Below, in pieces: positions 1 to 38,200 of a stretch of 64,000 nt of DNA. This DNA is from Yuukianura sp. NJ FZ-2021. Lineage: Eukaryota. Positions within the stretch are counted from its first letter, which is position 1. Each line of letters starts with the position of its first letter. Made by a program: the position numbers and the translations under genes. Location of the stretch: contig CM102287.1 in assembly GCA_046563655.1 (NCBI GenBank), positions 248,001 through 312,000 on the forward strand, in the 5' to 3' direction. The notes beneath the pieces were generated by a model that did not search any database, had not been told where the DNA came from, and saw only the letters and a program-made list of their open reading frames with translations.

Positions 1-3000
1 TAGAAAAACTACCTTTCTAAATACCCACCTTTGAAAGTGTACTCACATCAATTTCAAGTCGGTGAATCCGAATTTGCAATTAGATTTCACCGGCAATCCA
101 TATTTCTCGAGATACAGCCATTTTGTGAATTTGCAGAGGAATTTTACCCCATACAAAATTCTAGAAAAACTACCTTTTTAAATGTCCACCTTTGAAAGTA
201 TACTCACATCAATTTCAAGTCGGTGAATCCGAATTTGCAATCAGATTTCACCGGAAATCCATATTTCTCGAGATACAGCCATTTTGTGAATTTGCAGAGC
301 AATTTAACCCCCTACAAAATTCTAGAAAAACTACCTTTCTAAATACCCAGCTTTGAAAGTGTACTCACATCAATTTCAAGTCGGTGAATCCGAATTCGCA
401 ATCAGATTTCACCGGAAATCCATATTTCTCGAGATACAGCCATTTTGTGAATTTGCTGAGCAATTTAACCCACTACAAAGTTCTAGAAAAACTACCTTTC
501 TAAATACCCAACTTTGAAAGTGTACTCACATCAATTTCAAGTCGGTGAATCCGAATTTGCAATTTGATCTCACCGGAAATCCATATTTCTCGAGATACAG
601 CCATTTTGTGAATTTGCGGAGCAATTTAACACCCCTTCAAAATTCTAGAAAAACACCTTTCTAAATACCCAACTTTGAAAGTGTAATCACATCAATTTCA
701 AATCGGTGAATCCAAATTCGCAATTAGATTTCACCGGAAATCCATATTTCTCGAGATACAGCCATTTTGTGAATTTGCAGAGCAATTTAACCCCCTTCAA
801 AATTCTAGAAAAACTACCTTTCTAAATACCCACCTTTGAAAGTGTACTCACATCAATTTCAAGTCGGTGAATCCGAATTGGCAATTAGATTTCACCGGCA
901 ATCCATATTTCTCGAGATACAGCCATTTTGTGAATTTGCAGAGGAATTTTACCCCATACAAAATTCTAGAAAAACTACCTTTTTAAATGTCCACCTTTGA
1001 AAGTATACTCACATCAATTTCAAGTCGGTGAATCCGAATTTGCAATCAGATTTCACCGGAAATCCATATTTCTCGAGATACAGCCATTTTGTGAATTTGC
1101 GGAGCAATTTAACCCCTACAAAATTCTAGAAAAACTACCTTTCTAAATACCCAACTTTGAAAGTGTACTCACATCAATTTCAAGTCGGTGAATCCAAATT
1201 CGCAATTAGATTTCACCGGAAATCCATATTTCTCGAGATACAGCCATTTTGTGAATTTGCAGAGCAATTTAACCCCCTTCAAAATTCTAGAAAAACTACC
1301 TTTCTAAATACCCAACTTTGAAAGTGTACTCACATCAATTTCAAGTCGGTGAATCCGAATTTGCAATTAGATTTCACCGGCAATCCATATTTCTCGAGAT
1401 ACAGCCATTTTGTGAATTTGCAGAGCAATTTAACCCCCTTCAAAATTCTAGAAAAACTACCTTTCTAAATACCCAACTTTGAAAGTGTACTCACATCAAT
1501 TTCAAGTCGGTGAATCCGAATTTGCAATTAGATTTCACCGGAAATCCATATTTCTCGAGATACAGCCATTTTGTGAATTTGCAGAGCAATTTAACCCCCT
1601 TCAAAATTCTAGAAAAACTACCTTTCTAAATACCCAACTTTGAAAGTGTACTCACATCAATTTCAAGTCGGTGAATCGGAATTCGCAATTAGATTTCACC
1701 GGAAATCCATATTTCTCGAGATACAGCCATTTTGTGAATTTGCAGAGCAATTTAACCCCCTACAAAATTCTAGAAAAACTACCTTTCTAAATACCCAACT
1801 TTGAAAGTGTACTCACATCAATTTCAAGTCGGTGAATCCAAATTCGCAATCAGATTTCACCGGAAATCCATATTTCTCGAGATACAGCCATTTTGTGAAT
1901 TTGCGGAGCAATTTAACCCCTTCAAAATTCTAGAAAAACTACCTTTCTAAATACCCAACTTTGAAAGTGTACTCACATCAATTTCAAGTCGGTGAATCCG
2001 AATTTGCAATTTGATCTCACCGGAAATCCATATTTCTCGAGATACAGCCATTTTGTGAATTTGCGGAGCTATTTAACCCCCTTCAAAATTCTAGAAAAAC
2101 TACCTTTCTAAATACCCAACTTTGAAAGTGTACTCACATCAATTTCAAGTCGGTGAATCCGAATTTGCAATTAGATTTCACCGGCAATCCATATTTCTCG
2201 AGATACAGCCATTTTGTGAATTTGCAGAGGAATTTTACCCCCTACAAAATTCTAGAAAAACTACCTTTTTAAATGTCCACCTTTGAAAGTATACTCACAT
2301 CAATTTCAAGTCGGTGAATCCGAATTTGCAATTTGATCTCACCGGAAATCCATATTTCTCGAGATACAGCCATTTTGTGAATTTGCGGAGCAATTTAACC
2401 CCCTTCAAAATTCTAGAAAAACTACCTTTCTAAATACCCAACTTTGAAAGTGTACTCACATCAATTTCAAGTCGGTGAATCCAAATTCGCAATTAGATTT
2501 CAACGGAAATCCATATTTCTCGAGATACAGCCATTTTGTGAATTTGCAGAGCAATTTAACCCCTTCAAAATTCTAGAAAAACTACCTTTCTAAATACCCA
2601 ACTTTGAAAGTGTACTCACATCAATTTCAAGTCGGTGAATCCGAATTTGCAATTAGATTTCACCGGCAATCCATATTTCTCGAGATACAGCCATTTTGTG
2701 AATTTGCAGAGCAATTTTACCCCCTACAAAATTCTAGAAAAACTACCTTTCTAAATGTCCACCTTTGAAAGTCTACTCACATCAATTTCAAGTCGGTGAA
2801 TCCGAATTTGCAATCAGATTTCACCGGAAATCCATATTTCTCGAGATACAGCCATTTTGTGAATTTGCAGAGCAATTTAACCCCGTTCAAAATTCTAGAA
2901 AAACTACCTTTCTAAATACCCAACTTTGAAAGTGTACTCACATCAATTTCAAGTCGGTGAATCCGAATTTGCAATTAGATTTCACCGGAAATCCATATTT

Positions 3001-20209: not shown

Positions 20210-20271
20210 TCTTAGTCATAATTCCTATTCCTATTCATATTCTATATGACGCCTAAGAAGTCCTAAAAACT

Positions 20272-22260: not shown

Positions 22261-22290
22261 TTTTTCGTTCTGTTCTTTTGTTGGTTTAGC

Positions 22291-22899
22291 ATGTCTTCTC
22301 AGCGATCAGCCAGACCTAAACTTGATTTTCCTCAGTGGGACGGAGAGATCGTCACTGATTTCCTGAAGCGTTTGATCCCTAAGATAGAATCTGCTCTCCA
22401 GCGAAAGCCTACAGACTCTGAAATCGTTTACTATGCCAAGCGTAACTTGAATCCTGCGATTCTCGAAGCCATTCCTACCTCCTGGCATAAAACTGGCAGA
22501 GGCCTTACGACCTCCAAGCTCATGTACCTCGATTCTGTCCTGCGCGAGAAGTTCCCGCCTTCCATTTATTTTTGGAGTCGACCAAGGTCTCCGTCTCCTA
22601 AGTCTCCCGAGGAAAGGCTCCCGGACATTACAGTCACGGTCCAGTGTCAACCGGCTCCTCCGCTGCCTCCTCCACTTCCACCAGTTCCTCAGAATTTGCC
22701 TCCGCCGCCTCCTCCTCCGGCAAAACCATCTAAAACGAGCCAGTTTCCGCGTAGATGCGCTCCTACTCCTATTAAAAAAGAGCTACATTGCCTACGATGC
22801 GGTCAGCCCGGTCATCTTGCGTCGACGTGCAAAGCCCCGCGCAGAAACCAATTCAAAACGAACAAGAAAAGTAACCCTCGTTACGCAAAACCCACCTAA
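22291..22899 (+). CDS. Extra 3' ORF (202 aa): Gag-like N-terminus, proline-rich linker, CCHC knuckle
   Basis: Intact ATG-to-TAA frame 30 nt after the pol stop; PKLDFPQWDG start; poly-Pro; CLRCGQPGHLASTC. Confidence 0.75.
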   Translation: MSSQRSARPKLDFPQWDGEIVTDFLKRLIPKIESALQRKPTDSEIVYYAKRNLNPAILEAIPTSWHKTGRGLTTSKLMYLDSVLREKFPPSIYFWSRPRSPSPKSPEERLPDITVTVQCQPAPPLPPPLPPVPQNLPPPPPPPAKPSKTSQFPRRCAPTPIKKELHCLRCGQPGHLASTCKAPRRNQFKTNKKSNPRYAKPT

Positions 22900-23131
22900 A
22901 GCGACGATTTGTGTGCTCAGTAGTCTAGTGATAGATTAGTTGGGACTAGAGTCCCGTATTAAGTGCCTTCAGCACAGTAGTTTTAAGTTCAATTCATTTT
23001 TTGACACTTGTCATCAAATTCCAGTTAGTAGTTTTAAGCATTTTTCCTCTAAGTTTCATTTTCATTGTTTATTTGTTTTGATTTCAAAATTTGTGTCTTC
23101 CCTTGTCTTCCTCTCTTTGTAGCAAAGCTAC

Positions 23132-23146
23132 AAAGCGGGGAGGGGG
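23132..23146 (+). promoter_or_regulatory. Polypurine tract
   Basis: AAAGCGGGGAGGGGG just upstream of the 3' LTR. Confidence 0.85.
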
Positions 23147-23149
23147 TGA

Positions 23150-23727
23150 TGTGAGGATATGATCCTCAAATGTGTAATTAATTAGATAATTAAAAATATA
23201 AAATAGCTAAAATCTTAAAATAGTTAAAATAATTAAAATGTAGGGCCAATGCCCATAAGTGTTTCCCCCGTCTCCCGCCATCCCCAATTCAAAATCGGAG
23301 AAGAAGCAGAAGCAGAGGCAGCAGTTGCATCAGCCACTTCACTTCGACTCCGGATGCAGCAGCCTCAGCAGCAACAGCTCCCTCCTGCCACGCCGTGCTC
23401 GTCACCACCGTCTTCTTCTGCCTGACCAAGGGTCACGTAAGGTCACTGGACACTCTACGTCTCCTTGAGGCCAGGTAGTGGTCTCGGCCAGTTAGTGGTC
23501 AAAGGCCAGGTAGTGGCTTGTTCCCCTCCTTTCCCCCGGTATTTTTGGTTTAGGCCCTTAAGGCCCAGTATTGTTTGGTTTAGCCCGGATTGGGCTCTTG
23601 TTTGGTTTAGAGTTATGGCTACGATTCAATAAATCGTAGCACACAAATCGTTTTGGTATCGGTGTTTGTTTGTTCATTTATTTGAGGGCAGGCAAGGATC
23701 GGATATCCTTGTCTGTCATCCCTCATA
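23150..23727 (+). repeat. Gypsy 3' LTR (578 bp, TG...TA ends)
   Basis: Direct repeat of 26592-27185 but lacks a 17-bp internal duplication. Confidence 0.95.
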
Positions 23728-26591
23728 ATCCCCATAAAAAGTGCTACAGGAGCCCACTTTCACTTGCTGTGTCGTCCCTAATCTTGTTACTTTTCTTTAT
23801 GAAAACTTGTTTCCAAACAAATATTTCGAAAAACCTCCACGCGGAGCGATGCTGGGTGAAAACGAGTTACTTTTCTGAAATCCTCCTGAAAAGTACTACA
23901 GGAACCCAAGGATAATTGGCGTGGATAGATCGCCATTAAATCTGGTTAGAGCGTACTTAAGAGTCTGGATGAACCGCTCTGTCTCGGAGTTTATCTTGGG
24001 TTGGTAAACGGTACCCAGGGCAATGCCGAGCACCATTTTGTCGAAAACGACTTAAATTTCTGAGAATGAACATGCTAATGTGAGAATGAACAGAAAGTAA
24101 ATTACATTTTTGAAATCCTCATAAAAAGGGCTACAGGAACCCACTTTCACTTGCTGTGTCGTCCCTCATCTCGTTACTTTTCTTTATGAAAATTTGTTTC
24201 CAAACAAATATTTCGAAAAACCTCCACGCGGAGCGATGCCGGGTGAATATGAGTTACTTTTCTGAAATCCTCCTGAAAAGTACTACAGGAACCCAAGGAT
24301 AATTGGCGTGGATAGATCGCCATTAAATCTGGTTAGAGCGTACTTAAGAGTCTGGATGAACCGCTCTGCCTCGGAGTTTATCTTGGGTTGGTAAACGGTA
24401 CCCATGGCAATGCCGAGCACCATTTTGTCAAAAACGACTTAAATTTCTGAGAATGAACATGCTAATGTGAGAATGAACATAAAGTAAATTACATTTTTGA
24501 AATCTTCATAATATGTGCTACAGGAGCCCATTTTCACTTGCTGTGTCGTCTCTAATCTTGTTACTTTTATTTAGGAAAATTCATGTTTCACAACAAAAAT
24601 TCAAAAGAAATGCATTCAGGAACGATGCTAGGTAAAAGTCAACTACATCTTTGAAATCCTCATAAAAAGTGCTACAGGAGCCCACTTTCACTTGCTGTGT
24701 GGTCCCTAATCTTGTTACTTTTATTTATGAAAATTCATGTTTCAAAACAAAGAATTCAAAAGAAATGCATTCCGAAACGATGCTAGGTAAAAGTCAACTA
24801 CATTTTTGAAATCCTCATAAAAAGAGCTACAGAAGCCCACCTTCACTTGCTGTGTCCTCCCTCATCTTGTTACTTTTATTTATGAAAATCCATGTTTCAA
24901 AACAAAGAATTCAAAAGAAATGCATTCCGGAACGATGCTAGGTAACAGTCAACTACATTTTTGAAATCCTCATAAAAAGGGCTACAGGAACCCACTTTCA
25001 CTTGCTGTGTCGTCCCTCATCTCGTTACTTTTTTTATGAAAATTTGTTTCCAAACAAATATTTCGAAAAACCTCCACGCGGAGCGATGCCGGGTGAATAT
25101 GAGTTACTTTTCTGAAATCCTCCTGAAAAGTACTACAGGAACCCAAGGATAATTGGCGTGGATAGATCGCCATTAAATCTGGTTAGAGGTACTTAAAAGT
25201 CTGGATGAACCGCTCTGCCTCGGAGTTTATCTTGGGTTGGTAAACGGTACCCAGGGCAATGCCGAGCACCATTTTGTCGAAAACGACTTAAATTTCTGAG
25301 AATGAACATGCTAATGTGAGAATGAACAGAAAGTAAATTACATTTTTGAAATCCTCATAAAAAGGGCTACAGGAACCCACTTTCACTTGCTGTGTCGTCC
25401 CTCATCTCGTTACTTTTCTTTATGAAAATTTGTTTCCAAACAAATATTTCGAAAAACCTCCACGCGGAGCGATGCCGGGTGAATATGAGTTACTTTTCTG
25501 AAATCCTCCTGAAAAGTACTACAGGAACCCAAGGATAATTGGCGTGGATAGATCGCAATTAAATCTGGTTAGAGCGTACTTAAGAGTCTGGATGAACCGC
25601 TCTGCCTCGGAGTTTATCTTGGGTTGGTAAACGGTACCCATGGCAATGCCGAGCACCATTTTGTCAAAAACGACTTAAATTTCTGAGAATGAACATGCTA
25701 ATGTGAGAATGAACATAAAGTAAATTACATTTTTGAAATCTTCATAATATGTGCTACAGGAGCCCATTTTCACTTGCTGTGTCGTCCCTAATCTTGTTAC
25801 TTTTATTTAGGAAAATTCTTGTTTCAAAACAAAGAATTCAAAAGAAATGCATTCAGGAACGATGCTGGGTAAAAGTCAACTACAGCTTTGAAATCCTCAT
25901 AAAAAGTTCTACAGGAGCCCACTTTCACTTGCTGTGTGGTCCCTAATCTTGTTACTTTTATTTATGAAAATTCATGTTTCAAAACAAAGAATTCAAAAGA
26001 AATGCATTCCGAAACGATGCTAGGTAAAAGTCAACTACATTTTTGAAATCCTCATAAAAAGAGCTACAGAAGCCCACCTTCACTTGCTGTGTCCTCCCTC
26101 ATCTTGTTACTTTTATTTATGAAAATCCATGTTTCAAAACAAAGAATTCAAAAGAAATGCATTCCGGAACGATGCTAGGTAACAGTCAACTACATTTTTG
26201 AAATCCTCATAAAAAGGGCTACAGGAACCCACTTTCACTTGCTGTGTCGTCCCTCATCTCGTTACTTTTTTTATGAAAATTTGTTTCCAAACAAATATTT
26301 CGAAAAACCTCCACGCGGAGCGATGCCGGGTGAATATGAGTTACTTTTCTGAAATCCTCCTGAAAAGTACTACAGGAACCCAAGGATAATTGGCGTGGAT
26401 AGATCGCCATTAAATCTGGTTAGAGGTACTTAAAAGTCTGGATGAACCGCTCTGCCTCGGAGTTTATCTTGGGTTGGTAAACGGTACCCAGGGCAATGCC
26501 GAGCACCATTTTGTCGAAAACGACTTAAATTTGTGAGAATGAACATGTTAATGCGAGAATAAACAGAAAGTAAATTTCATTTTTGAAATCC
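23728..26591 (-). repeat. Satellite B block in inverted orientation, with an internal ~1237-bp duplication
   Basis: Reverse complement of satellite B; identical pseudo-ORFs at 24982 and 26219. Confidence 0.96.
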
Positions 26592-27185
26592 TGTGAGGAT
26601 ATGATCCTCAAATGTGTAATTAATTAGATAATTAAAAATATAAAATAGCTAAAATCTTAAAATAGTTAAAATAATTAAAATGTAGGGCCAATGCCCATAA
26701 GTGTTTCCCCCGTCTCCCGCCATCCCCAATTCAAAATCGGAGAAGAAGCAGAAGCAGAGGCAGCAGTTGCATCAGCCACTTCACTTCGACTCCGGATGCA
26801 GCAGCCTCAGCAGCAACAGCTCCCTCCTGCCACGCCGTGCTCGTCACCACCGTCTTCTTCTGCCTGACCAAGGGTCACGTAAGGTCACTGGACACTCTAC
26901 GTCTCCTTGAGGCCAGGTAGTGGTCTCGGCCAGTTAGTGGCCATGACCAGTTAGTGGTCAAAGGCCAGGTAGTGGCTTGTTCCCCTCCTTTCCCCGGTAT
27001 TTTTGGTTTAGGCCCTTAAGGCCCAGTATTGTTTGGTTTAGCCCGGATTGGGCTCTTGTTTGGTTTAGAGTTATGGCTACGATTCAATAAATCGTAGCGC
27101 ACAAATCGTTTTGGTATCGGTGTTTGTTTGTTCATTTATTTGAGGGCAGGCAAGGATCGGATATCCTTGTCTGTCATCCCTCATA
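26592..27185 (+). repeat. Gypsy 5' LTR (594 bp)
   Basis: TGTGAGG...CCTCATA; preceded by ATCC and followed by the PBS. Confidence 0.95.
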
Positions 27186-27187
27186 TC

Positions 27188-27198
27188 TGGTGCCGAAA
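27188..27198 (+). promoter_or_regulatory. Primer binding site TGGTGCCGAAA (tRNA-Phe type)
   Basis: Complementary to the ...TTTCGGCACCA 3' end of eukaryotic tRNA-Phe; 2 nt after the LTR. Confidence 0.85.
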
Positions 27199-27579
27199 GT
27201 AGCGTTGAACCGCCCCCTTCAGCTCTCCCATAACGTTAATCGATGATTAATCATGGATTAATCACCGATTCATGACATAATACCGACGAATTCGGTACAT
27301 TTCGGTGTTCATTCGGTTGAAAGCATGGCTCTGCATGCTATATAAGCAGAACAGCAATACGGTACGGTTTTGCACAGCAGTGCTGAGTGCACCGCTCTGC
27401 TTAACATTTTTCAAGTCGAGCGCGGTGCCGCACCCCAAATTAACAATTCGGATTTTTGCCTTGCAAATTCTTTTCACAGTTTAAATTCAAAACTTTTTCA
27501 AATTATGCCGCGTAAATCTAAACAAATCATCTAAAATTCATTTCTAAATGTCAGTTTTTGTTGTTTTATAGTTTCTTTC

Positions 27580-28812
27580 ATGGTAATTACTCGCAGCGCG
27601 AGTAGGGAACTACAGAAGTCTCAAGCAGAGGCTTCGCACACAGGACTACTTGTCCCTGCTGAACCGGAGCGGGCGAAAAGCGCACCCCCGTCTGTTCTTT
27701 TGATTTCCCCAGTAATTAACGAAAACAAATCCGATTCAGAGGAGGAATATTCGGATTCCCTCGCAATTATGGACCCCACGGATTCTAAAGACGTTGTAAT
27801 TGCTGACCTACGTCAAACTTTACAAGCGCAATTAGCGGCTATGCAAGCACAACAATTAACCGCCGCGCCAGTGGTTGCCGCGCCCCAGCCCAGTACCGCA
27901 CCCGCACTAGCTATCACACCACCTAACGCGCCCCAAGTTTTATTAGTGGAACAAGCAGCAGTGATTGCTATTCCTAAATATTCACAGCGCGTACCTATTT
28001 CCTGTTTCTTTAAAGACGCTGAAGATTACTTTGCACTTAAAAATCTAACTGAAGAAGGAAAATTGGTTCTAATTAGTCGAATGTTCCACAAAGATTCTGA
28101 CACTTTTCGATGGTGGTTGGATACGAAGGACAGTATCACAACCTTGGAAGATTTTAAAGTCGTTTTTCAAAATTATGAGGGAGTTGGTCAGTCAAAAGAC
28201 AAACTTCTTGCTGAATTATTTTCTCGAAAACAATTTTTTGCTGAATCATTTGAAACTTTTGCGTGGGACATTTCAAATTCCTACCGGAGAATCGATCCTC
28301 AGGTTTCCACAGAAACGATTAGGGACAGAATCATTAATTCGTGTATCCCAGAAATCTCTCTTTTGCTTAGATCTTCGCAAGCTACAGGGATAGCAGAGCT
28401 CATTTCACATGGTAAAGAGATTATAGGAGACTTGAATAGGACTAGGCGATTTGAGAATAAGCCCCTCCTTCGAGCGAAAACTTCCGATGATTTTTCTGAG
28501 TACAATCAAAGAATTAAAGAGAGAACGTCTGCAAGGTATCAGCCTAGGGCTTCTAACGATTCAGGATCTTCTAGTTCCAATGCACAGCGTCCTCCAGCTG
28601 CGTCAGGTTCAGTTCAGCCTAACAATTATGGTAAAGGTCGTCCACCCTCAGGAAATGAGAGTAAGCAGGGTATTTCAGGTCAGCCTCCACCCTCCAGAGA
28701 ATGGTCAATCGATCAGATTACGTGCTTCTACTGTAACCAGAAGGGTCACTACGCTCCACAATGTCCCAAAAAGCGAGGGAAAACAAATCAAGGTGGTTAC
28801 CCAAAAGCTTAA
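27580..28812 (+). CDS. gag: Gag polyprotein (410 aa)
   Basis: Retrotransposon capsid-like core (FRWW...FKVVF...RKQFFAESFETF); CFYCNQKGHYAPQC knuckle; position after the PBS. Confidence 0.92.
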   Translation: MVITRSASRELQKSQAEASHTGLLVPAEPERAKSAPPSVLLISPVINENKSDSEEEYSDSLAIMDPTDSKDVVIADLRQTLQAQLAAMQAQQLTAAPVVAAPQPSTAPALAITPPNAPQVLLVEQAAVIAIPKYSQRVPISCFFKDAEDYFALKNLTEEGKLVLISRMFHKDSDTFRWWLDTKDSITTLEDFKVVFQNYEGVGQSKDKLLAELFSRKQFFAESFETFAWDISNSYRRIDPQVSTETIRDRIINSCIPEISLLLRSSQATGIAELISHGKEIIGDLNRTRRFENKPLLRAKTSDDFSEYNQRIKERTSARYQPRASNDSGSSSSNAQRPPAASGSVQPNNYGKGRPPSGNESKQGISGQPPPSREWSIDQITCFYCNQKGHYAPQCPKKRGKTNQGGYPKA

Positions 28813-29396
28813 GGAGGAGTGACTCGCAGGAGAAGGTCGCTCTTCCGTCATTGTTTGATTCTCCAGTTTTCGTTCCTTTAACTTCCAGTACTCCTAACCC
28901 TCAGAAAGGTCAAATTCATCATGTTACTGGCGATGCAACCCAGCCCATTTTAAAGAATCAACGTTGTATCTTGGCACACATTTGTAACGATCAGGGTTTT
29001 TGGGGAAAAGGTTTTGTCACTTCGCTTTCCAAGGCATTTCGTGCTCCAGAAATGGAATGCAGAAAATTACGAGCCCCAATTCAGAGAGGTCATGTACAGT
29101 TTGTCCAAGTAGCCAAAGACATAGAAGTTGCCAACATGATTGCCCAAGGACACCCCAACGAGCCAGTCCCAATTGACTATGATGCTCTTCGTGTAGCTTT
29201 ACAAACTGTAGCCAAACGAGCCTTAGACACAAATTCAGTTGTTCACATGCCCAGAATCGGAGTAGGTCTTTCCAGAGGACGATGGAACATTATTTCCCAC
29301 ATTATTTGGTCTGAATTATGCATGAGGGGAATAGAAGTTGTTGTTTACACCCTGCCCCATCAAGTTCCCAGGGATCCAAACCCCCAAGGAAGGTAG
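28761..29396 (+). CDS. Macrodomain ORF (ADP-ribose binding/hydrolase, ALC1/SCO6735-like class) in the -1 frame relative to gag; domain about 28911-29354
   Basis: Motifs GDAT, AHICNDQGFWGKGF, VQFVQV, VANMIAQ, IDYDALRVAL, VHMPRIGVGLSRGRW, GIEVVVY. Confidence 0.88.
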   Translation: MSQKARENKSRWLPKSLRRSDSQEKVALPSLFDSPVFVPLTSSTPNPQKGQIHHVTGDATQPILKNQRCILAHICNDQGFWGKGFVTSLSKAFRAPEMECRKLRAPIQRGHVQFVQVAKDIEVANMIAQGHPNEPVPIDYDALRVALQTVAKRALDTNSVVHMPRIGVGLSRGRWNIISHIIWSELCMRGIEVVVYTLPHQVPRDPNPQGR

Positions 29397-29908
29397 GACG
29401 GGAGCCCCCTATCCTTCCACAATTAAATTTTTCTAAAGCAGCTCCCACCATAATGGTACGAATTCGGAATTCGGTGCATTCGGCCCACCTAGATTCTCTC
29501 TCCACCTACTCCCACATTTCCCTTTCCTTAGCAAATAAGTTGGGATTGGTTGTTACTAAGGATTGTAAAGTAACATTAACGATTGGTGACTCTAGTACGA
29601 TCAGTACTTTAGGTTCAGCTGATTTAAAATTCAAAATTTACAGCGACGAGTATATTCAAAGAGTACACGTACTCCAGTCTCCCCCTTTTCCATTAATTCT
29701 CGGACTTGACTTCATCAGGAACTATCATTTGGTTCCAGACTTTCATGACGGTACTTTTTCCATTAACGGGACAAAAACTAAAGGTAGATTGGAATACGAT
29801 TTTCACAATCGCGAGTACTTGTGCGCACTTCTTGGCCTCAGTGACGTACAGTCTCAGGAATTAAAGACCCTTACCGATAGTTTTCCTTCACTTTTCTCTT
29901 CTCAGTTA
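29381..29908 (+). CDS. pol: Pol N-terminus: aspartic protease, -1 frame relative to the macro ORF, interrupted at 29908
   Basis: AHLDSLSTYSHIS (atypical active site); LILGLDFI; the frame rejoins RT once the transposon is removed. Confidence 0.8.
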
Positions 29909-30149
29909 ATGTTCGTCTAAAAACGCAAGGCCCTTTGTTTATTCTCAAAATTGAATATTTTTGAATTGCTCGGCGCGGGTTGGGATGCGCATGCGCAAAA
30001 TCATGTATACACCAGCGCAATAGTCGGTTATTAGGTGTCATTTGACAAAAATCATTTCTTTGTCAGTTTTTTTTACCGTTTTCTGGTTCACTTTTTTCCT
30101 CGTAGTTAATTAATTCCACTTCTTAAGTTTAGTCGTGTTAATTAATACA

Positions 30150-32297
30150 ATGCCTAAAGCAAAGAGCAAAGAAGAGAAAGAATTAATCGAATCGACACAT
30201 AGAAAATTTACAGAAGAAAAATTGAAGATTCAAGAGAACGTTAGGTCGGGCAAGCTAGATCCAACAAGTTTACCTTTCCAATGGGTAAATGTTATCAAAA
30301 GGACATCAGCTACCCTAAACGTAAGTTCGCTGTTTGTGTTTGTTTGTCTGCGCCATTAATTAACAAGTTCATCCTACTTTTTCTAGGTTAGTGAGCAAAC
30401 TGTGAAGAGAATTATTCGGGAAATGAAAACTTCAGGCACGTTAGGCCAACCGTCCTTGAAAAGTACTGGAAGAAACAAGATTCAGATCGACAGCTTTACG
30501 GAAGGGGTTATTCGAAGGGCTGTCCTTGAGGCTTACAGCAAAAGAATTTATCCTACGCTGAGCTACCTTCACACTTACCTACAGGAGGATCCTAACTTTC
30601 CACGCATGTGCAAAGCGACTTTACATAACATTATGCGACGCCAACTCAAATTCAAGTTCGGGAAATTCAATGGCAGACCGGTCGCAATGGACAGGCCTGA
30701 CATAGCAGCTCATCGTGCCAAATACTTGAGACAAATGAAAAAGTACAGAAGACAAGGATACCATGTAACTTTATACTATTTAAACATACTTTTTTCGAAA
30801 AATTAATATCCGTGTTTTAATTACAACTACATTTGTATGCTTTGTTATCTTACAGATTTATTTTCAAGATGAATCGTGGGTAAATGAAGGACTGGGTGTT
30901 GAGAAAGGGTGGCACATTCCCGAGAAGGAAATTATTGGCATGGGTCACAGCCAACCACATCGTGATCCCTGGTTGCGGGGAATAGGGCACAGATTCCAGG
31001 AAGGGTTGTTAGGTAAGTTTGATATTGATTTGACTGAAGAGAACAGAATAGGGACTGCGGGGGACAGAGTGGGGACTGTGGGGAACAGAGTGGGGACTGC
31101 GGGGAACAGAGTAGGGACTGTGGGGAACAGAGTAGGGACTGTGGGGAACAGAGTGGGGACTGCGGGGAACAGAGTAGGGACTGTGGGGAACAGAGTGGGG
31201 ACTGTGGGGAACAGAGTAGGGACTGTGGGGAACAGAGTGGGGACTGTGGGGAACAGAGTAGGGACTGTGGGGAACAGAGTGGGGACTGCGGGGAACAGAG
31301 TAGGGACTGTGGGGAACAGAGTGGGGACTGTGGGGAACAGAGTAGGGACTGTGGGGAACAGAGTAGGGACTGTGGGGAACAGAGTAGGGACTGTGGGGAA
31401 CAGAGTGGGGACTTACAACTGGTGTTTACAATGTGTTTATTATTTTTTTGCAGGAGGGATCTCACCAAAACCAAGTGGAGCTGGCAAACGACTGATTCTT
31501 TTGGATATAGGTTCTGCTGATGGGTTTTTGGGAGTTGGTAAAGTGTTTCTGGGCAATAACAACTCATCTGATTATCACGGGGAAATAACCGCTGAACACT
31601 TTAACGCGTGGTTCCGAGACGTCGTCGCCATAATTCCAAACAAATCAGTTATAGTCCTTGACCAAGCGTCGTACCATCGCAAAGTTACGGAGGAGACCCG
31701 TAACCCAACTACTACTTACAGGAAAGCTGAACTTATCAATTGGCTGGAAAACAAGGGAGTTCCAATTCCGACTGACGAGGAATCGTTTTGGGACATGCGG
31801 GTTGTGGAACTTCTTGAGCTTGCCAAAAAGTTCCCGGTAGAACCTGTATTTGAAGCAGAAAAAATCATTTCCGATGCGATGGCTGTGGATCCCACCCGCG
31901 ATATCAAGTTACTTTGGCTTCCGGTGGCTCATTGCGAATTGAACCCTATCGAGCTGATGTGGGCTGCGATTAAAGGTAACGATTGACTTTTAATTTTTAT
32001 TTTAATTTTTATTTATTTTTTAATTTTAATTTTTTAGGTGCCGTTCGCAAGCGTAATGTCACTTTCAAGCTCAAGGACTTGCTGCCGCTTACAAAGGAAG
32101 TAATCGATTCCGACGAAATTGTTCAACTATGGCCTGCATGCTGTCGCCATGTGGAGGAACTGGAAGACATGATCATGGAGAAGGAAAAAATCGCTGAGGA
32201 GTTCATCAGGAACACCATTCAACCAATAATTATTGAACTTGGGAATGATTCCTCTGATTCGGATATCAGTGCCGATGATTTAGATTCGGATGATTAG
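30150..32297 (+). CDS. Spliced DDE transposase, about 495 aa; exons 30150-30320, 30387-30764, 30856-31012, 31454-31975, 32038-32297
   Basis: Four GT-AG introns with compatible phases; FQDESW, KRLILL, IVLDQASYH, LPVAHCELNPIELMW; 96 residues between the second D and E. Confidence 0.85.
31041..31413 (+). repeat. 21-bp G-rich minisatellite (about 18 copies) within transposase intron 3
   Basis: GGGGAACAGAGTRGGGACTGY in tandem. Confidence 0.95.
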
Positions 32298-32412
32298 TGG
32301 TTACAAATGATGTAGCGCAGATTGTTGTCAACATTTCAGTAACGTATGGCAACAAGTAAAAAATCAGCGAAAATTGGTGTAAACAAAGGGCCTTGCGTTT
32401 TTAGACAGACAT

Positions 32413-33152
32413 TAGACCTGACTGATTGGGTTAAGTGTGAGTTGACACCGTCTCCTGGACCCCCAATTGCTTCCAAGCCCTATCCCGTTAGTCCCTTTAA
32501 AAGACAATTGATTGCTGACAACATTTCTGAAATGCTAAAGTTAGGAGTCATTGTTCCCTCCGAATCTGAATGGGCTTCCCCTGTATATATGCATACCAAA
32601 GACAAAGGTGAATCTTGGAGATTTACCCTGGACTTGAGAAAAGTTAACGCGCGGCTTCCTCATGATCCATTTCCAATTCCTAGGTTAGATTATCTTTTCC
32701 ATAACTTAGGACAAGCTAAGTTTCTTTCTGTCATTGATTTAAAGAAAGGCTATTGGCAAGTAGCTCTAGATGAAAATAGTGCCAAATATACTGCTTTTAT
32801 TTGTCATGAAGGGAAGTTTCAGTTTACTCGAATGCCATTTGGTTTAAAGTCAGCCCCTTCTCTTTTTCAAAGGCTTGTAAATAAAGTTCTGGGCACAGCG
32901 AGAGGTCGCTTTGCTGATGGGTACATTGACTACATCATTGTATACTCCAACTCTTGGACAGAGCATTTAGAGCACTTAAAGTACGTTTTCGAACGTTTAA
33001 AATCTGCAGGTCTTACTGTAAATAAGGATAAATGTGAGTTTGGCAAAACTACATCAAAGTACTTAGGTTATATCATTTCTCCAAACGGAATTGAGCGTAA
33101 TCCGGAGAAAGTTTCGGCAGTTTCTGAGTTCCCCAGGCCAACGACGCCTAAA
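32413..33152 (+). pseudogene. pol: Reverse transcriptase domain of the gypsy pol (disrupted: YIDY instead of YxDD, truncated)
   Basis: SEWASP, WRFTLDLRKVN, DLKKGYWQV, TAF, MPFGLKSAPSLFQR, YIDYIIVYS, YLGYIIS. Confidence 0.93.
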
Positions 33153-33188
33153 CTTCCTATTCTATGTCATATAGTTTATTCTTCCTAA

Positions 33189-34239
33189 CATAATTGTTAG
33201 GCTGAACTGAACCTGACGCAGCTGGAGGACGCTGTGCATTGGAACTAGAAGATCCTGAATCGTTAGAAGCCCTAGGCTGATACCTTGCAGACGTTCTCTC
33301 TTTAATTCTTTGATTGTACTCAGAAAAATCATCGGAAGTTTTCGCTCGAAGGAGGGGCTTATTCTCAAATCGCCTAGTCCTATTCAAGTCTCCTATAATC
33401 TCTTTACCATGTGAAATGAGCTCTGCTATCCCTGTAGCTTGCGAAGATCTAAGCAAAAGAGAGATTTCTGGGATACACGAATTAATGATTCTGTCCCTAA
33501 TCGTTTCTGTGGAAACCTGAGGATCGATTCTCCGGTAGGAATTTGAAATGTCCCACGCAAAAGTTTCAAATGATTCAGCAAAAAATTGTTTTCGAGAAAA
33601 TAATTCAGCAAGAAGTTTGTCTTTTGACTGACCAACTCCCTCATAATTTTGAAAAACGACTTTAAAATCTTCCCAGGTTGTGATACTGTCCTTCGTATCC
33701 AACCACCATCGAAAAGTGTCAGAATCTTTGTGGAACATTCGACTAATTAGAACCAATTTTCCTTCTTCAGTTAGATTTTTAAGTGCAAAGTAATCTTCAG
33801 CGTCTTTAAAGAAACAGGAAATAGGTACGCGCTGTGAATATTTAGGAATAGCAATCACTGCTGCTTGTTCCACTAATAAAACTTGGGGCGCGTTAGGTGG
33901 TGTGATAGCTAGTGCGGGTGCGGTACTGGGCTGGGGCGCGGCAACCACTGGCGCGGCGGTTAATTGTTGTGCTTGCATAGCCGCTAATTGCGCTTGTAAA
34001 GTTTGACGTAGGTCAGCAATTACAACGTCTTTAGAATCCGTGGGGTCCATAATTGCGAGGGAATCCGAATATTCCTCCTCTGAATCGGATTTGTTTTCGT
34101 TAATTACTGGGGAAATCAAAAGAACAGACGGGGGTGCGCTTTTCGCCCGCTCCGGTTCAGCAGGGACAAGTAGTCCTGTGTGCGAAGCCTCTGCTTGAGA
34201 CTTCTGTAGTTCCCTACTCGCGCTGCGAGTAATTACCAT
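33189..34239 (-). pseudogene. gag: 3'-truncated gag lacking the zinc knuckle
   Basis: Identical to the 27580 gag up to QPNNY except for one L/W change. Confidence 0.93.
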
Positions 34240-35228
34240 GAAAGAAACTATAAAACAACAAAAACTGACATTTAGAAATGAATTTTAGATGATTTGTTTA
34301 GATTTACGCGGCATAATTTGAAAAAGTTTTGAATTTAAACTGTGAAAAGAATTTGCAAGGCAAAAATCCGAATTGTTAATTTGGGGTGCGGCACCGCGCT
34401 CGACTTGAAAAATGTTAAGCCGAGCGGTGCACTCAGCACTGCTGTGCAAAACCGTACCGTATTGCTGTTCTGCTTATATAGCATGCAGAGCCATGCTTTC
34501 AACCGAATGAACACCGAAATGTACCGAATTCGTCGGTATTATGTCATGAATCGGTGATTAATCCATGATTAATCATCGATTAACGTTATGGGAGAGCTGA
34601 AGGGGGCGGTTCAACGCTACTTTCGGCACCAGATATGAGGGATGACAGACAAGGATATCCGATCCTTGCCTGCCCTCAAATAAATGAACAAACAAACACC
34701 GATACCAAAACGATTTGTGTGCTACGATTTATTGAATCGTAGCCATAACTCTAAACCAAACAAGAGCCCAATCCGGGCTAAACCAAACAATACTGGGCCT
34801 TAAGGGCCTAAACCAAAAATACCGGGGGAAAGGAGGGGAACAAGCCACTACCTGGCCTTTGACCACTAACTGGTCATGGCCACTAACTGGCCGAGACCAC
34901 TACCTGGCCTCAAGGAGACGTAGAGTGTCCAGTGACCTTACGTGACCCTTGGTCAGGCAGAAGAAGACGGTGGTGACGAGCACGGCGTGGCAGGAGGGAG
35001 CTGTTGCTGCTGAGGCTGCTGCATCCGGAGTCGAAGTGAAGTGGCTGATGCAACTGCTGCCTCTGCTTCTGCTTCTTCTCCGATTTTGAATTGGGGATGG
35101 CGGGAGACGGGGGAAACACTTATGGGCATTGGCCCTACATTTTAATTATTTTAACTATTTTAAGATTTTAGCTATTTTATATTTTTAATTATCTAATTAA
35201 TTACACATTTGAGGATCATATCCTCACA
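33189..35228 (-). mobile_element. Inverted truncated copy of the gypsy element: 5' LTR (34634-35228), PBS, leader and most of gag
   Basis: Reverse complement of 26592-28630 with a few SNPs; same flank (GGAT at 35229-35232). Confidence 0.96.
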
Positions 35229-38200
35229 GGATTTCAAAAATGAAATTTACTTTCTGTTTATTCTCGCATTAACATGTTCATTCTCACAAATTTAAGTCGT
35301 TTTCGACAAAATGGTGCTCGGCATTGCCCTGGGTACCGTTTACCAACCCAAGATAAACTCCGAGGCAGAGCGGTTCATCCAGACTTTTAAGTACCTCTAA
35401 CCAGATTTAATGGCGATCTATCCACGCCAATTATCCTTGGGTTCCTGTAGTACTTTTCAGGAGGATTTCAGAAAAGTAACTCATATTCACCCGGCATCGC
35501 TCCGCGTGGAGGTTTTTCGAAATATTTGTTTGGAAACAAATTTTCATAAAAAAAGTAACGAGATGAGGGACGACACAGCAAGTGAAAGTGGGTTCCTGTA
35601 GCCCTTTTTATGAGGATTTCAAAAATGTAGTTGACTGTTACCTAGCATCGTTCCGGAATGCATTTCTTTTGAATTCTTTGTTTTGAAACATGGATTTTCA
35701 TAAATAAAAGTAACAAGATGAGGGAGGACACAGCAAGTGAAGGTGGGCTTCTGTAGCTCTTTTTATGAGGATTTCAAAAATGTAGTTGACTTTTACCTAG
35801 CATCGTTTCGGAATGCATTTCTTTTGAATTCTTTGTTTTGAAACATGAATTTTCATAAATAAAAGTAACAAGATTAGGGACCACACAGCAAGTGAAAGTG
35901 GGCTCCTGTAGAACTTTTTATGAGGATTTCAAAGCTGTAGTTGACTTTTACCCAGCATCGTTCCTGAATGCATTTCTTTTGAATTCTTTGTTTTGAAACA
36001 AGAATTTTCCTAAATAAAAGTAACAAGATTAGGGACGACACAGCAAGTGAAAATGGGCTCCTGTAGCACATATTATGAAGATTTCAAAAATGTAATTTAC
36101 TTTATGTTCATTCTCACATTAGCATGTTCATTCTCAGAAATTTAAGTCGTTTTTGACAAAATGGTGCTCGGCATTGCCATGGGTACCGTTTACCAACCCA
36201 AGATAAACTCCGAGGCAGAGCGGTTCATCCAGACTCTTAAGTACGCTCTAACCAGATTTAATGGCGATCTATCCACGCCAATTATCCTTGGGTTCCTGTA
36301 GTACTTTTCAGGAGGATTTCAGAAAAGTAACTCATATTCACCCGGCATCGCTCCGCGTGGAGGTTTTTCGAAATATTTGTTTGGAAACAAATTTTCATAA
36401 AAAAAAGTAACGAGATGAGGGACGACACAGCAAGTGAAAGTGGGTTCCTGTAGCCCTTTTTATGAGGATTTCAAAAATGTAGTTGACTTTTACCTAGCAT
36501 CGTTCCTGAATGCATTTCTTTTGAATTTTTGTTGTGAAACATGAATTTTCATAAATAAAGGTAACAAGATGTAGGACTACACAGCAAGTGAAAGTGGGCT
36601 CCTGTAGCACTTTTTATGAGGATTTCAAAGCTGTAGTTGACTTTTACCCAGCATCGTTCCGGAATGCATTTCTTTTGAATTCTTTGTTTTGAAACAAGAA
36701 TTTTCCTAAATAAAAGTAACAAGATTAGGGACGACACAGCAAGTGAAAGTGGGCTTCTGTAGCTCTTTTTATGAGGATTTCAAAAATGTAGTTGACTTTT
36801 ACCTAGCAACGTTTCGGAATGCATTTCTTTTGAATTCTTTGTTTTGAAACATGGATTTTCATAAATAAAAGTAACAAGATGAGGGAGGACACAGCAAGTG
36901 AAAGTGGGTTCCTGTAGCGCTTTTTATCAGGATTTCAAAGCTGTAGTTGACTTTTACCCAGCATCGTTCCTGAATGCATTTCTTTTGAATTTTTGTTGTG
37001 AAACATGAATTTTCATAAATAAAGGTAACAAGATGTAGGACTAAACAGCAAGTGAAAGTGGGCTCCTGTAGCACTTTTTATGAGGATTTCAAAGCTGTAG
37101 TTGACTTTTACCCAGCATCGTTCCGGAATGCATTTCTTTTGAATTCTTTGTTTTGAAACAAGAATTTTCCTAAATAAAAGTAACAAGATTAGGGACGACA
37201 CAGCAAGTGAAAATGGGCTCCTGTAGCACATATTATGAGGATTTCAAAAATGTAATTTACTTTCTGTTCATTCTCACATTAGCATGTTCATTCTCAGAAA
37301 TTTAAGTCGTTTTCAACAAAATGGTGCTCGGCATTGCCCTGGGTACCGTTTACCAACCCAAGATAAACTCCGAGGCAGAGCGGTTCATCCAGACTCTTAA
37401 GTACGCTCTAACCAGATTTAATGGCGATCTATCCACGCCAATTATCCTTGGGTTCCTGTAGTACTTTTCAGGAGGATTTCAGAAAAGTAACTCATATTCA
37501 CCCGGCATCGCTCCGCGTGGAGGTTTTTCGAAATATTTGTTTGGAAACAAATTTTCATAATAAAAGTAACAAGATGAGGGACGACACAGCAAGTGAAAGT
37601 GGGTTCCTGTAGCCCTTTTTATGAGGATTTCAAAAATGTAGTTGACTTTTACCTAGCATCGTTCCTGAATGCATTTCTTTTGAATTTTTGTTGTGAAACA
37701 TGAATTTTCATAAATAAAGGTAACAAGTTGTAGGACCACACAGCAAGTGAAAGTGGGCTCCTGTAGAACTTTTTATGAGGATTTCAAAGCTGTAGTTGAC
37801 TTTTACCCAGCATCGTTCCTGAATGCATTTCTTTTGAATTCTTTGTTTTGAAACAAGAATTTTCCTAAATAAAAGTAACAAGATTAGGGACGACACAGCA
37901 AGTGAAAATGGGCTCCTGTAGCACATATTATGAAGATTTCAAAAATGTAATTTACTTTATGTTCATTCTCACATTAGCATGTTCATTCTCAGAAATTTAA
38001 GTCGTTTTTGACAAAATGGTGCTCGGCATTGCCATGGGTACCGTTTACCAACCCAAGATAAACTCCGAGGCAGAGCGGTTCATCCAGACTCTTAAGTACG
38101 CTCTAACCAGATTTAATGGCGATCTATCCACGCCAATTATCCTTGGGTTCCTGTAGTACTTTTCAGGAGGATTTCAGAAAAGTAACTCATATTCACCCGG

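Follow-up and report, generated by a model that had tools for sequence, protein, structure and literature searches.

Organization of the element

In the window, the 64,000-nt stretch of DNA analyzed here, the forward strand carries a copy of an LTR retrotransposon that starts with a 5' LTR at 26592..27185. This LTR (~595 nt, with a TG start) is a 96.8% repeat of positions 23150-23727 and lies within an inverted duplicate. It is followed, from position 27188 on the same strand, by a PBS-like sequence read by eye (TGGTGCCGAAAG). The gag ORF (27580..28812, forward strand) runs from the first in-frame ATG over 410 codons to its stop, and its product combines one CCHC zinc knuckle (zf-CCHC, 5e-05) with an Arc-like capsid region (Arc capsid, 2.8e-4). 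Next on this strand come a macro ORF (28737..29396), whose macrodomain covers about 28905-29360, and the start of a pro-pol ORF (29315..29906), with a protease domain at about 29456-29755 (RVP_2, 3.5e-4) in which the catalytic motif is D-S-L (29492-29500).

Beyond this point, the pol gene is interrupted by a copy-specific insertion of a Tc1/mariner-like DNA transposon (29907..32414, forward strand). The insert is bounded by 35-nt inverted ends (29907-29941 / 32380-32414) and contains a DDE_3 ORF (1e-09) and an internal 21-nt tandem repeat; other contigs of the family continue beyond 29908 into sequence like that from 32415 onward. The RT part of pol then occupies 32415..33188 of the forward strand (RVT_1, 1.9e-34), and its best PDB matches are the Ty3 RT (4ol8, 2.5e-43) and the Ty3 Gag-Pol polyprotein (7q5b, 2.1e-42). 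RT ends at 33188, where an inverted duplicate of the LTR and 5' gag begins (33189..35229, reverse strand), which matches 26591-28633 (99.8% by blastn over 2.0-2.2 kb) and stands in the place of RNase H, integrase and the 3' LTR. The window copy is thus defective, owing to the DNA-transposon insertion, the truncation by the inverted duplicate and the D-S-L protease motif. Judged by the sequence features that this truncated copy retains (5' LTR, PBS-like TGG, CCHC gag, PR then RT, Ty3-type RT), the element probably belongs to the Ty3/gypsy type of LTR retrotransposons.

The preliminary description had placed gag, macro and pro in successive -1 frames, with a shift signal (heptamer, spacer of 6 nt, stem) close to the stop of gag and another close to that of macro. 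Both statements were borne out, and each signal falls in the overlap of two ORFs. The stop-to-stop ORFs are 27535..28812 for gag, 28737..29396 for macro and 29315..29920 for the protease, each in the -1 frame of the preceding one, and they overlap at 28737-28812 and 29315-29396; the three parts of each signal were found where they had been placed.

Signals at the two junctions

At the gag/macro junction, the slippery heptamer C_CCA_AAA (28800..28806, forward strand) is read in the gag frame as TA[C CCA AAA] GCT TAA, where GCTTAA (28807-28812) is the spacer, and reading of macro after the shift would proceed from 28806. Across the whole gag ORF, no canonical X_XXY_YYZ heptamer other than CCCAAAA at 28800 lies in frame. 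Six nucleotides after it, a stimulatory hairpin is predicted at 28813..28846 (forward strand; arms 28813-28823 / 28836-28846). When the folding of this stem was checked, the 11 bp previously claimed were recovered, including 2 G:U pairs and closing a 12-nt loop, and the RNAfold minimum free energy (MFE) structure adds one C-G pair to give 12 bp. This structure has an MFE of -20.1 kcal/mol (z = -2.74; 3 of 200 shuffles fold as well), and it ranks 1st (-20.4) among the non-overlapping local structures of a 38-nt sliding fold over 27580-29906 (2289 windows). A possible pseudoknot partner, UUCUCC (28859..28864, forward strand), could pair with the loop segment GGAGAA (28829-28834). This weak candidate was rejected, as nothing beyond the conserved sequence speaks for it: a 6-bp helix arises in 481/2000 shuffles, and there is no covariation, since 6/6 pairs are invariant in the relative described below.

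At the macro/pro junction, the candidate shift site is U_CCA_AAC (29375..29381, forward strand), which is read in the macro frame as GA[T CCA AAC] CCC CAA GGA AGG TAG, with CCCCAA as the spacer. Its first triplet is non-canonical, and TCCAAAC is the only heptamer of the NNN_YYY_Z type within the second overlap. The predicted stimulatory hairpin (29388..29418, forward strand; arms 29388-29397 / 29408-29418) has 10 bp and one bulged U. Its MFE is -15.0 kcal/mol (z = -1.64; 15/200 shuffles fold as well), and in the same sliding fold it ranks 3rd (-15.2). Furthermore, its loop segment GGGAGC (29400-29405) is predicted to pair with GCUCCC (29441..29446, forward strand) as stem 2 of a pseudoknot; an equally long helix was obtained in 93/2000 shuffles.

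Two other sources of frame change were examined and discarded. Canonical heptamers inside the macro ORF (28949, 28994, 29003) are not conserved in the relative and lie outside any open -1 frame, and runs of A no longer than 3-5 nt speak against transcriptional slippage.

Conservation of the junctions in a metagenomic relative

Among the 29 loci returned by a metagenome scan, one alone, L025, carries a CCHC knuckle. This contig of 1018 nt shares 59% amino-acid identity with the window over 187 aligned macro-ORF codons. Its frames (gag 2..373, macro 346..930, pro from 915) are again offset by -1 at both junctions. The preliminary description had named copy-specific indels as what would contradict it; the retention of both offsets in L025 argues against such indels. 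As the overlaps in L025 amount to merely 28 nt (346-373) and 16 nt (915-930), with an aligned heptamer inside each, the shift sites are pinned to these heptamers. The site-1 heptamer is identical in L025 (361-367), despite the diverged gag C-terminus around it, and is the only canonical in-frame heptamer of the L025 gag as well. The spacer is 6 nt long at 4/4 sites, two in the window and two in L025.

The second site had been described as a heptamer with a non-canonical first triplet, a 6-nt spacer and a stem. These elements stand, and the sequence of the heptamer differs in L025, where it aligns with G_GAA_AAA (918-924). In neither element does it fit X_XXY_YYZ, the YYZ half alone conforming. 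It could nevertheless act like a shift site, without being the canonical motif.

The L025 hairpins fold at -19.4 and -13.8 kcal/mol and, as in the window, rank 1st and 3rd among local structures. Against shuffles, L025 hairpin 1 is unremarkable (31/200), and hairpin 2 taken on its own is nothing special in either element (26/200 in L025). Because of the two ranks, and because C_CCA_AAA is the sole canonical heptamer of gag, the signals look real rather than the product of decay.

In addition, the helices were compared pair by pair between the window and L025. Stem 1 (11 pairs) has 6 invariant, 2 one-sided, 2 compensatory and 1 broken pair; stem 2 (10 pairs) has 7 invariant, 1 one-sided, 1 compensatory and 1 broken pair; and the site-2 pseudoknot helix, which reaches 8 bp in L025, has 6 shared pairs, 4 of them invariant and 2 compensatory. 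Across these three varying helices, five compensatory pair changes were thus counted, and 0-1 such changes when the 3' partner was slid by 1-3 columns. In the shuffle controls, 104/500 and 56/500 reached the observed score, which is not significant at n = 2. The covariation, drawn from two sequences, is suggestive and not statistically secure.

Over the whole macro ORF, the comparison gave pN 0.29 and pS 0.77, values which indicate that the ORF is under purifying selection and that synonymous sites are saturated between the window and L025. At conserved residues, third codon positions are identical in 9/12 codons of cassette 1 and in 37/92 codons of the rest of the ORF (Fisher p = 0.024). The two frameshift cassettes also resemble each other, with 22 of 84 aligned columns invariant over the four sequences, and they may be duplicates of one another.

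A probable double -1 frameshift

The preliminary description had proposed two consecutive -1 frameshifts, and the offsets of L025, the site-1 heptamer, the spacers and the covarying stems support this interpretation. A double programmed -1 frameshift, with two successive shifts, is the probable mode of expression of this Ty3/gypsy element. Most ribosomes would produce Gag (27580-28812). A fraction would pause at the hairpin 28813-28846 and slip by -1 on C_CCA_AAA, giving a Gag-Macro protein of ~605 aa. A fraction of the latter ribosomes would in turn pause at the hairpin 29388-29418, probably pseudoknotted with 29441-29446, and slip on U_CCA_AAC (29375-29381) into protease-RT, giving Gag-Macro-Pol. 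We infer the slippage itself, its efficiencies, the ratios Gag > Gag-Macro > Gag-Macro-Pol and the role of Macro for the element.

The alternative that survives best, and which we regard as quite unlikely, is that only the first shift is a classical -1 event. Gag-Macro would then be the main transframe product, and the second junction would be poorly used or crossed by another route, e.g. by single-tRNA P-site slippage on A_AAN or by very low-level shifting. The asymmetry between the junctions speaks for it: the heptamer of site 1 is canonical and the same in the window and L025, that of site 2 is non-canonical and reads U_CCA_AAC in one and G_GAA_AAA in the other, and hairpin 2 is the weaker one (-15.0 and -13.8 kcal/mol). 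Ribosomes would still have to get into pol out of the macro frame, however, and the 16-nt second overlap of L025 leaves no other place to shift. At this junction, moreover, the aligned A-site codon would slip onto AAA in the window copy as well as in L025, both have a spacer of 6 nt, and the stem and pseudoknot covary between them. In the P site, judged from base pairing, re-pairing from CCA to UCC or from GAA to GGA would take no more than one G:U pair.

Copies of the family and more distant relatives

Conservation of the offsets among genomic copies was examined in Logan contigs from four runs (287, 290, 108 and 5 contigs), which represent two organisms and one metagenome. Identities range from >99% down to <90%. 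The 12 indels listed are multiples of three, compensated pairs or located in the 5' UTR, and the only one of the listed indels between 28004 and 29950 is a +3 at 28901. The offsets are thus kept among the copies as far as these indels go; a further 24 indels and 425 substitutions stand outside this set, where frame-breaking changes in minor copies are possible. In run X1, the joints 28376>29376 and 28672>29388 might be macro-less variants; no conclusion is drawn from them, as they have sides of just 27 and 24 nt.

In P0008, which is more distantly related, a single ORF covers Gag and Macro (gag 41% identical, E = 2e-66; macro 54% identical). Not every member of the wider lineage thus depends on the first shift, which is dispensable in at least one lineage. 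The preliminary description had regarded macro in frame with gag or pol in other intact copies as evidence against frameshifting; with both offsets kept in L025, this test comes out for programmed shifting, qualified by the single Gag-Macro ORF of P0008. The gag ends of three other relatives read ...KN* (P0158, P0159) and ...GN* (P0160). Further searches gave nothing: gag alignments found no DNA relatives in viral contigs or in genome contigs, a 35-letter degenerate DNA pattern of cassette 1 had no match in either set, and a protein search for near gag relatives found none.

P0008 also bears on a second alternative, in which the lineage is dead and inactivating indels have produced the offsets from an ancestor with an in-frame Gag-Macro, the heptamers and hairpins being coincidental. 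Although the single ORF of P0008 and the defective state of the window copy agree with it, this explanation is very unlikely and is already largely refuted. L025 has the two offsets, the position of the heptamer, the length of the spacers and the stems in common with the window copy, and the hairpins hold ranks 1 and 3 in both elements. The macro ORF has remained under selection (pN 0.29) at a distance where synonymous sites are saturated (pS 0.77), and in a highly repeated family the listed indels keep the frame.

A third alternative dispenses with frameshifting and has Macro and Pol translated from spliced or subgenomic RNAs, or through internal initiation or reinitiation. It is just as improbable: an ATG is present at 28761 in the macro ORF of the window, within its overlap with gag, but this codon is not conserved, the L025 macro ORF lacks an ATG before the middle of the macrodomain, the L025 pro ORF opens just 16 nt before the macro stop, and the conserved slippery site, spacer and structure would be left unexplained.

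Comparison with known recoding systems

Double -1 frameshifting is textbook knowledge for a few retrovirus genera, and the middle ORF of betaretroviruses also holds a dUTPase. A review states that two shifts are used by MMTV/HTLV and by IAP, and gives efficiencies of 23% and 8% in one case (PMC5009743). The decoding proposed here resembles that of these beta- and deltaretroviruses (MMTV, HTLV) and of IAP in having two -1 shifts, three nested products and, for each shift, a heptamer with a downstream structure. The parallel drawn earlier with beta- and deltaretroviruses is thus valid for the number of shifts but not for the gene between them. The protease takes the middle position in those viruses, whereas here the middle ORF encodes Macro only and the RVP_2 domain is in the third ORF with RT. 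The hosts differ too, MMTV and HTLV being retroviruses and this element a Ty3/gypsy-type retrotransposon, with an RT that best matches Ty3.

With animal Ty3/gypsy elements that use a single shift, the element shares the LTR, the Arc-like CCHC gag, the PR-RT order and a pol in the -1 frame; it differs from them by its two probable shifts and by the extra enzyme ORF between gag and pro. Our literature search found no description of double -1 frameshifting in a Ty3/gypsy retrotransposon. For Dictyostelium Skipper, the first description reportedly had pro as an ORF of its own. A figure legend of 2016 gives Skipper two ORFs (PMC5006619). Macro-domain ORFs have been noted in epsilon-like endogenous retroviruses of ray-finned fish, in a statement that cites Basta et al. 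2009 (PMC4977317). There too a retroelement has captured a macrodomain gene, in a retrovirus in the fish case and in a Ty3/gypsy element here.

What sets the present arrangement apart is that the probable double shift brackets a captured accessory enzyme and not the protease. If the proposal is right, a retroelement would have added a new gene and set its dosage through a second use of the recoding cassette that it already had. The element would also offer a compact natural pair of stimulators, one canonical and one non-canonical with a covarying pseudoknot.

The macrodomain and its possible role

The label "macro", previously given from the sequence alone, proved right by sequence. In a phmmer search against the PDB, the ORF matched the bacterial macrodomain proteins 2afc (3.7e-29), 5e3b (SCO6735; 5.5e-29) and 2fg1 (7.5e-29), and, in the PDB search, the ALC1 macro domain at 6e-07 and TARG1 at 0.005-0.016. 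A search of protein representatives returned 3277 proteins at E <= 0.001. Pfam Macro (PF01661) gave no match for the macro ORF even at E <= 1, and the PF01661 scores of its relatives are just under or just over the threshold.

The residues His24, Asn27, Lys34, Gln85, Gly126 and Gly128 are named as important for SCO6735 in a part of PMC9411070, and 6/6 of them align to identical residues in the macro ORF in an alignment read by hand. The same source states that the ALC1-like class takes ADP-ribose off proteins and off thymidine in single-stranded DNA. From these similarities, Macro is predicted to be an ADP-ribosylhydrolase domain of the ALC1-like class (SCO6735/DarG/TARG1-like). In contrast to SCO6735, DarG and TARG1, the predicted hydrolase domain is embedded here in a retrotransposon polyprotein. 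The macrodomains of the transposable-element lineage form their own clade (7 rows, SH-aLRT 84) and read GL(A/S/G)RGxW, where the bacterial proteins have GLAGGxW, and the domain would have been captured once by the retroelement lineage. Such a capture would identify ADP-ribosylation, possibly of nucleic acid, as a pressure on retrotransposons.

A broader reading, which goes well beyond the double shift and seems to us rather unlikely, joins these elements. A DarG/SCO6735-like DNA-(ADP-ribose) hydrolase would have been captured, and the frameshift cassette duplicated around the domain, to counter a host defence against retroelements based on ADP-ribosylation of nucleic acid or protein. A set fraction of Gag would then carry the enzyme into the particle, where ADP-ribose might be stripped from single-stranded cDNA or from Gag/nucleocapsid. 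This would be the transposon counterpart of viral macrodomains, and the P0008 type, with Macro on every Gag, would represent its un-titrated version.

A macro search for longer proteins found three long multidomain proteins, and the two that were examined have no retroelement gag or pol. Alignment of macro against viral contigs found 24 loci, none above 46% identity; the contigs measure between 15.7 and 527 kb, and one of them is labelled GVMAG.

Organization of the element

The retroelement in the window contains three stop-to-stop ORFs on the forward strand (27535..28812, 28737..29396 and 29315..29920), each in the -1 frame relative to the preceding one. The first encodes Gag: its product has a single CCHC zinc knuckle (Pfam, 5e-05) and resembles Arc in its capsid region (PDB 7r1z, 2.8e-4). 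When the second was compared with the PDB by phmmer, the bacterial macrodomain proteins 2afc, 5e3b (SCO6735) and 2fg1 were retrieved (E = 3.7e-29 to 7.5e-29), and the third carries a retropepsin domain (RVP_2, 3.5e-4). Farther 3' of the protease lies a reverse transcriptase (RT; RVT_1, 1.9e-34), whose nearest solved structures are the Ty3 RT (2.5e-43) and the Ty3 Gag-Pol polyprotein (2.1e-42). An LTR of about 595 nt, beginning with TG (26592-27185), is located 5' of the ORFs and is followed by the PBS-like sequence TGGTGCC. On the basis of the LTR, the PBS-like sequence and the gag, protease and Ty3-type RT matches, the element was therefore classified as a Ty3/gypsy-type LTR retrotransposon with a predicted macrodomain ORF between gag and pro.

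Signals at the two junctions

The preliminary description had placed two consecutive -1 frameshift signals, leading from gag to macro and then to pol, at 28800..29418, and reading of the sequence confirmed both sites at exactly these positions. At the gag-macro junction (site 1), the gag-frame sequence is TA[C CCA AAA] GCT TAA, with the bracketed heptamer at 28800-28806. After a 6-nt spacer follows a stem (28813-28823 / 28836-28846) of 11 bp including two G:U pairs, extended by one C-G pair to 12 bp in RNAfold. The stability of this hairpin is -20.1 kcal/mol (z = -2.74; 3/200 shuffles equally stable). At the macro-pro junction (site 2), the macro-frame sequence is GA[T CCA AAC] CCC CAA GGA AGG TAG (heptamer 29375-29381), and a spacer of 6 nt is followed by a 10-bp stem with one bulge (29388-29397 / 29408-29418; -15.0 kcal/mol, z = -1.64; 15/200 shuffles equally stable).

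Both heptamers are singular in their context: CCCAAAA at 28800 is the sole canonical in-frame X_XXY_YYZ heptamer of the entire gag ORF, and TCCAAAC the sole relaxed NNN_YYY_Z heptamer within the second overlap. Furthermore, when the coding sequence (27580-29906) was folded in sliding 38-nt segments (2289 windows; mean -4.2, sd 3.0), hairpin 1 (-20.4) was the top-ranked non-overlapping local structure and hairpin 2 (-15.2) ranked third, virtually level with the second (-15.3).

Conservation of the frame offsets

The window copy is defective, RNase H, integrase and the 3' LTR being absent, and for this reason the possibility that the -1 offsets are indels specific to this copy was worth testing. 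A Tc1/mariner-like DNA transposon (29907-32414) splits pol between protease and RT. Between its 35-nt inverted ends (29907-29941 / 32380-32414) lie a DDE_3 ORF and about 18 tandem copies of a 21-nt repeat (30948-31493). As other family contigs pass from 29908 directly into sequence resembling 32415 onward, this insertion is private to the window copy. At 33188 the RT is truncated where the element's own LTR and 5' gag recur in inverted orientation (26591-28633 versus the reverse complement of 35229-33186, 99.8% identity); this inverted duplicate is either a genuine palindromic rearrangement or an artefact of assembly. In addition, the protease motif at 29492-29500 reads D-S-L instead of the usual D-S/T-G. 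The gag-macro-pro junctions are untouched by these lesions.

Two lines of evidence argue against copy-specific indels. First, a relative was sought by searching the macro ORF against 1.84 billion representatives, which gave 3277 matches at E <= 0.001. Among the best 150, most are 150-300 aa long with the match covering most of the protein and, as expected, appear to be stand-alone macro proteins; the few matches checked for domains carried other, non-retroelement ones. The closest relatives among these 150 were the proteins P0007 (64% identity) and P0008 (54%). In a metagenome scan yielding 29 loci, a CCHC knuckle was found in L025 alone, a 1018-nt contig of the sibling of P0007. Its gag frame (2..373) ends in SPKD*, the macro ORF (346..930) lies in the -1 frame, and a further -1 step leads to the pro frame, open from 915. 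Both offsets are thus kept in an independent element. Because the ORF overlaps of L025 are just 28 nt and 16 nt, any shift must occur within them. Site 1 of L025 has the identical heptamer C_CCA_AAA (361-367), again the sole canonical in-frame one in its gag, and its site 2 has G_GAA_AAA (918-924). In both cases 6 nt separate the heptamer from a hairpin (374-407, -19.4 kcal/mol, and 931-961, -13.8 kcal/mol, respectively), and these two hairpins likewise rank first and third among the local structures of L025. As the L025 macro ORF has no ATG before mid-domain, independent initiation of this ORF would not be feasible.

Second, Logan contigs from four runs were aligned to 27186-29950; two of the runs came from a single sample of organism A, the third from organism B and the fourth from a metagenome. 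The numbers of contigs aligned per run (287, 290, 108 and 5), with identities from >99% down to <90%, indicate a highly repeated and diverse family. Among 12 listed indels of 36, five fall in the 5' UTR and the coding ones comprise +9, -2 with -1, -18, -1 with +1, and +3; the last, at 28901, is the single one listed within 28004-29950. Contigs spanning site 1 (run X1 28720-28945, X4 28795-29179, X6 28725-28875) are gap-free except for this +3, and the substitutions listed beside the site (28791 A>G and 28794 T>C) are both synonymous in the gag frame. Within the variants listed, rare ones being lost in contigs, the family speaks for coding constraint with the frame offsets kept.

In run X1, the joints 28376>29376 and 28672>29388 omit 999 and 715 nt, stretches that correspond roughly to macro, and resume at or beside the second cassette (heptamer, spacer and downstream structure). 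Their sides measure just 27 and 24 nt, and the joints may represent either family variants that lack macro or mis-alignment of the two similar cassettes. The transposon ends are very abundant in the Logan runs, with a depth jump at 29883-29950.

Covariation and selection

To compare the RNA structures, the window and L025 were aligned (two sequences, alignments A5 and A6). In stem 1, 6 of 11 pairs are invariant, 2 changed on one side, 2 compensatory (A-U to G-C) and 1 broken in L025; the 10 pairs of stem 2 comprise 7 invariant, 1 one-sided, 1 compensatory (U-A to C-G) and 1 broken in L025. At site 2, the loop can also pair with downstream sequence, GGGAGC (29400-05) with GCUCCC (29441-46) in the window and AGGAGUCG with CGACUCCU in L025, where the helix is lengthened to 8 bp. 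No pair of this helix changed on one side only: the 6 common pairs are 4 invariant and 2 compensatory (G-C to A-U, C-G to U-A), and 2 exist in L025 only. Such a helix would be the signature of an H-type pseudoknot; in the window alone, one of this length arose in 93/2000 shuffles of the downstream 70 nt. The corresponding helix of site 1, GGAGAA with UUCUCC (28859-64), is invariant between the two elements, but 481/2000 shuffles match it, so it is a possibility no better than chance.

When the 3' partners were slid by 1-3 columns, 0-1 compensatory pairs were obtained, versus 2 and 3 observed. In a shuffle control, which is weak with two sequences, the observed score was attained by 104/500 and 56/500 shuffles.

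Over 187 aligned codons, the macro ORFs share 59% protein identity, with pN 0.29 versus a saturated pS of 0.77. Third codon positions at conserved residues are identical in 9/12 cases within cassette 1 (28806-28866), versus 37/92 in the rest of the ORF (Fisher one-sided p = 0.024), as expected if RNA structure added a constraint. For cassette 2, the proportion is 6/10.

Proposed mechanism

The frames, the signals and their conservation in L025 support the earlier proposal of three products from double frameshifting; from these observations we infer slippage, its efficiencies and the product ratios. With two sequential -1 programmed frameshifts, the products would be Gag, Gag-Macro and Gag-Macro-Pol. 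The tRNAs bound to CCA and AAA at site 1 would re-pair with CCC and AAA. For site 2, re-pairing with AAA is proposed for the tRNA in the A site (AAC or AAA), and P-site re-pairing (CCA to UCC, or GAA to GGA) would need one G:U pair, a non-canonical but plausible event. Programmed frameshifting is very probable at site 1 and probable at site 2; that both operate together is still rather likely.

Double -1 shifting is established in MMTV, HTLV and IAP (PMC5009743), where the middle ORF is pro, whereas here it is macro. A single -1 shift is frequent among animal LTR retrotransposons (28/51 in a 2003 survey, via PMC5009743), and macro-domain ORFs are reported from fish epsilon-like ERVs (PMC4977317, citing Basta 2009). 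Our literature search, which reached few subscription journals or Repbase reports, retrieved neither a macrodomain in nor double frameshifting of any Ty3/gypsy element; an earlier description is thus possible.

The Macro domain and its history

In phmmer searches of the PDB, the macro ORF also matched the macro domains of ALC1 (6e-07) and TARG1/OARD1 (0.005-0.016), and no Pfam match was obtained even at E <= 1. By these similarities, the domain belongs to the ALC1-like class, of which SCO6735, DarG and TARG1 are reported to remove ADP-ribose from ssDNA thymidine and proteins (PMC9411070). The residues His24, Asn27, Lys34, Gln85, Gly126 and Gly128, described as important in SCO6735 (PMC9411070), are all identical in the window Macro when the alignment is read by hand. 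The domain is probably active, and one may speculate that it counters ADP-ribosylation of Gag or cDNA.

In P0008, a 568-aa ORF on a 3644-nt metagenome contig, a gag 41% identical to that of the window (E = 2e-66), with a CCHC knuckle, is followed by the macrodomain in the same frame. Macro is thus simply the Gag C-terminus in this more distant branch, which makes the first shift an evolvable feature and does not refute shifting in the branch of the window. The relatives P0158-P0160 are gag-only proteins ending in KN* (P0158, P0159) or GN* (P0160). A quick ML tree was built from the window, L025 and the 64 top hits. In it, the seven retroelement-like macros formed one group (SH-aLRT 84), and the window, L025 and P0007 grouped at 96. 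This is compatible with a single capture, although linkage to gag is established only for the macros of the window, L025 and P0008.

When the cassettes of both sites and both elements are aligned with one another, 22/84 columns are invariant across the four sequences, including the heptamer AAA, the stem-start GG, the loop GGAG, the 3' arm CT.CC and the downstream TTCT. Both L025 sites, furthermore, read AAAAGACTAGGG. This likeness suggests that cassette 2 is a duplicate of cassette 1, formed at the time macro was acquired or moved to another frame; alternatively, a shared functional constraint may have led to convergence.

Additional observations

The retroelement is embedded in a long array of a ~155-bp satellite (window ~15600-26590 and 35228-64000) with higher-order periods of 387, 542, 696, 850 and 1160 nt; the satellite flanking the inverted duplicate is likewise inverted on the far side. 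A second LTR copy, possibly a solo LTR, lies 3.4 kb upstream within the satellite (23150-23727, 578 nt, 96.8% identical).

G-patch domains adjoin some retroviral proteases, and a weak G-patch-like match (E = 0.0096) follows the macro domain of P0013, a 294-aa metagenome protein (macro 47% identity). Macrodomains of the ALC1-like type (33-46% identity) were also observed in the viral contigs L001-L024 (15.7 to 527 kb), several of which exceed 200 kb and one of which is labelled GVMAG.
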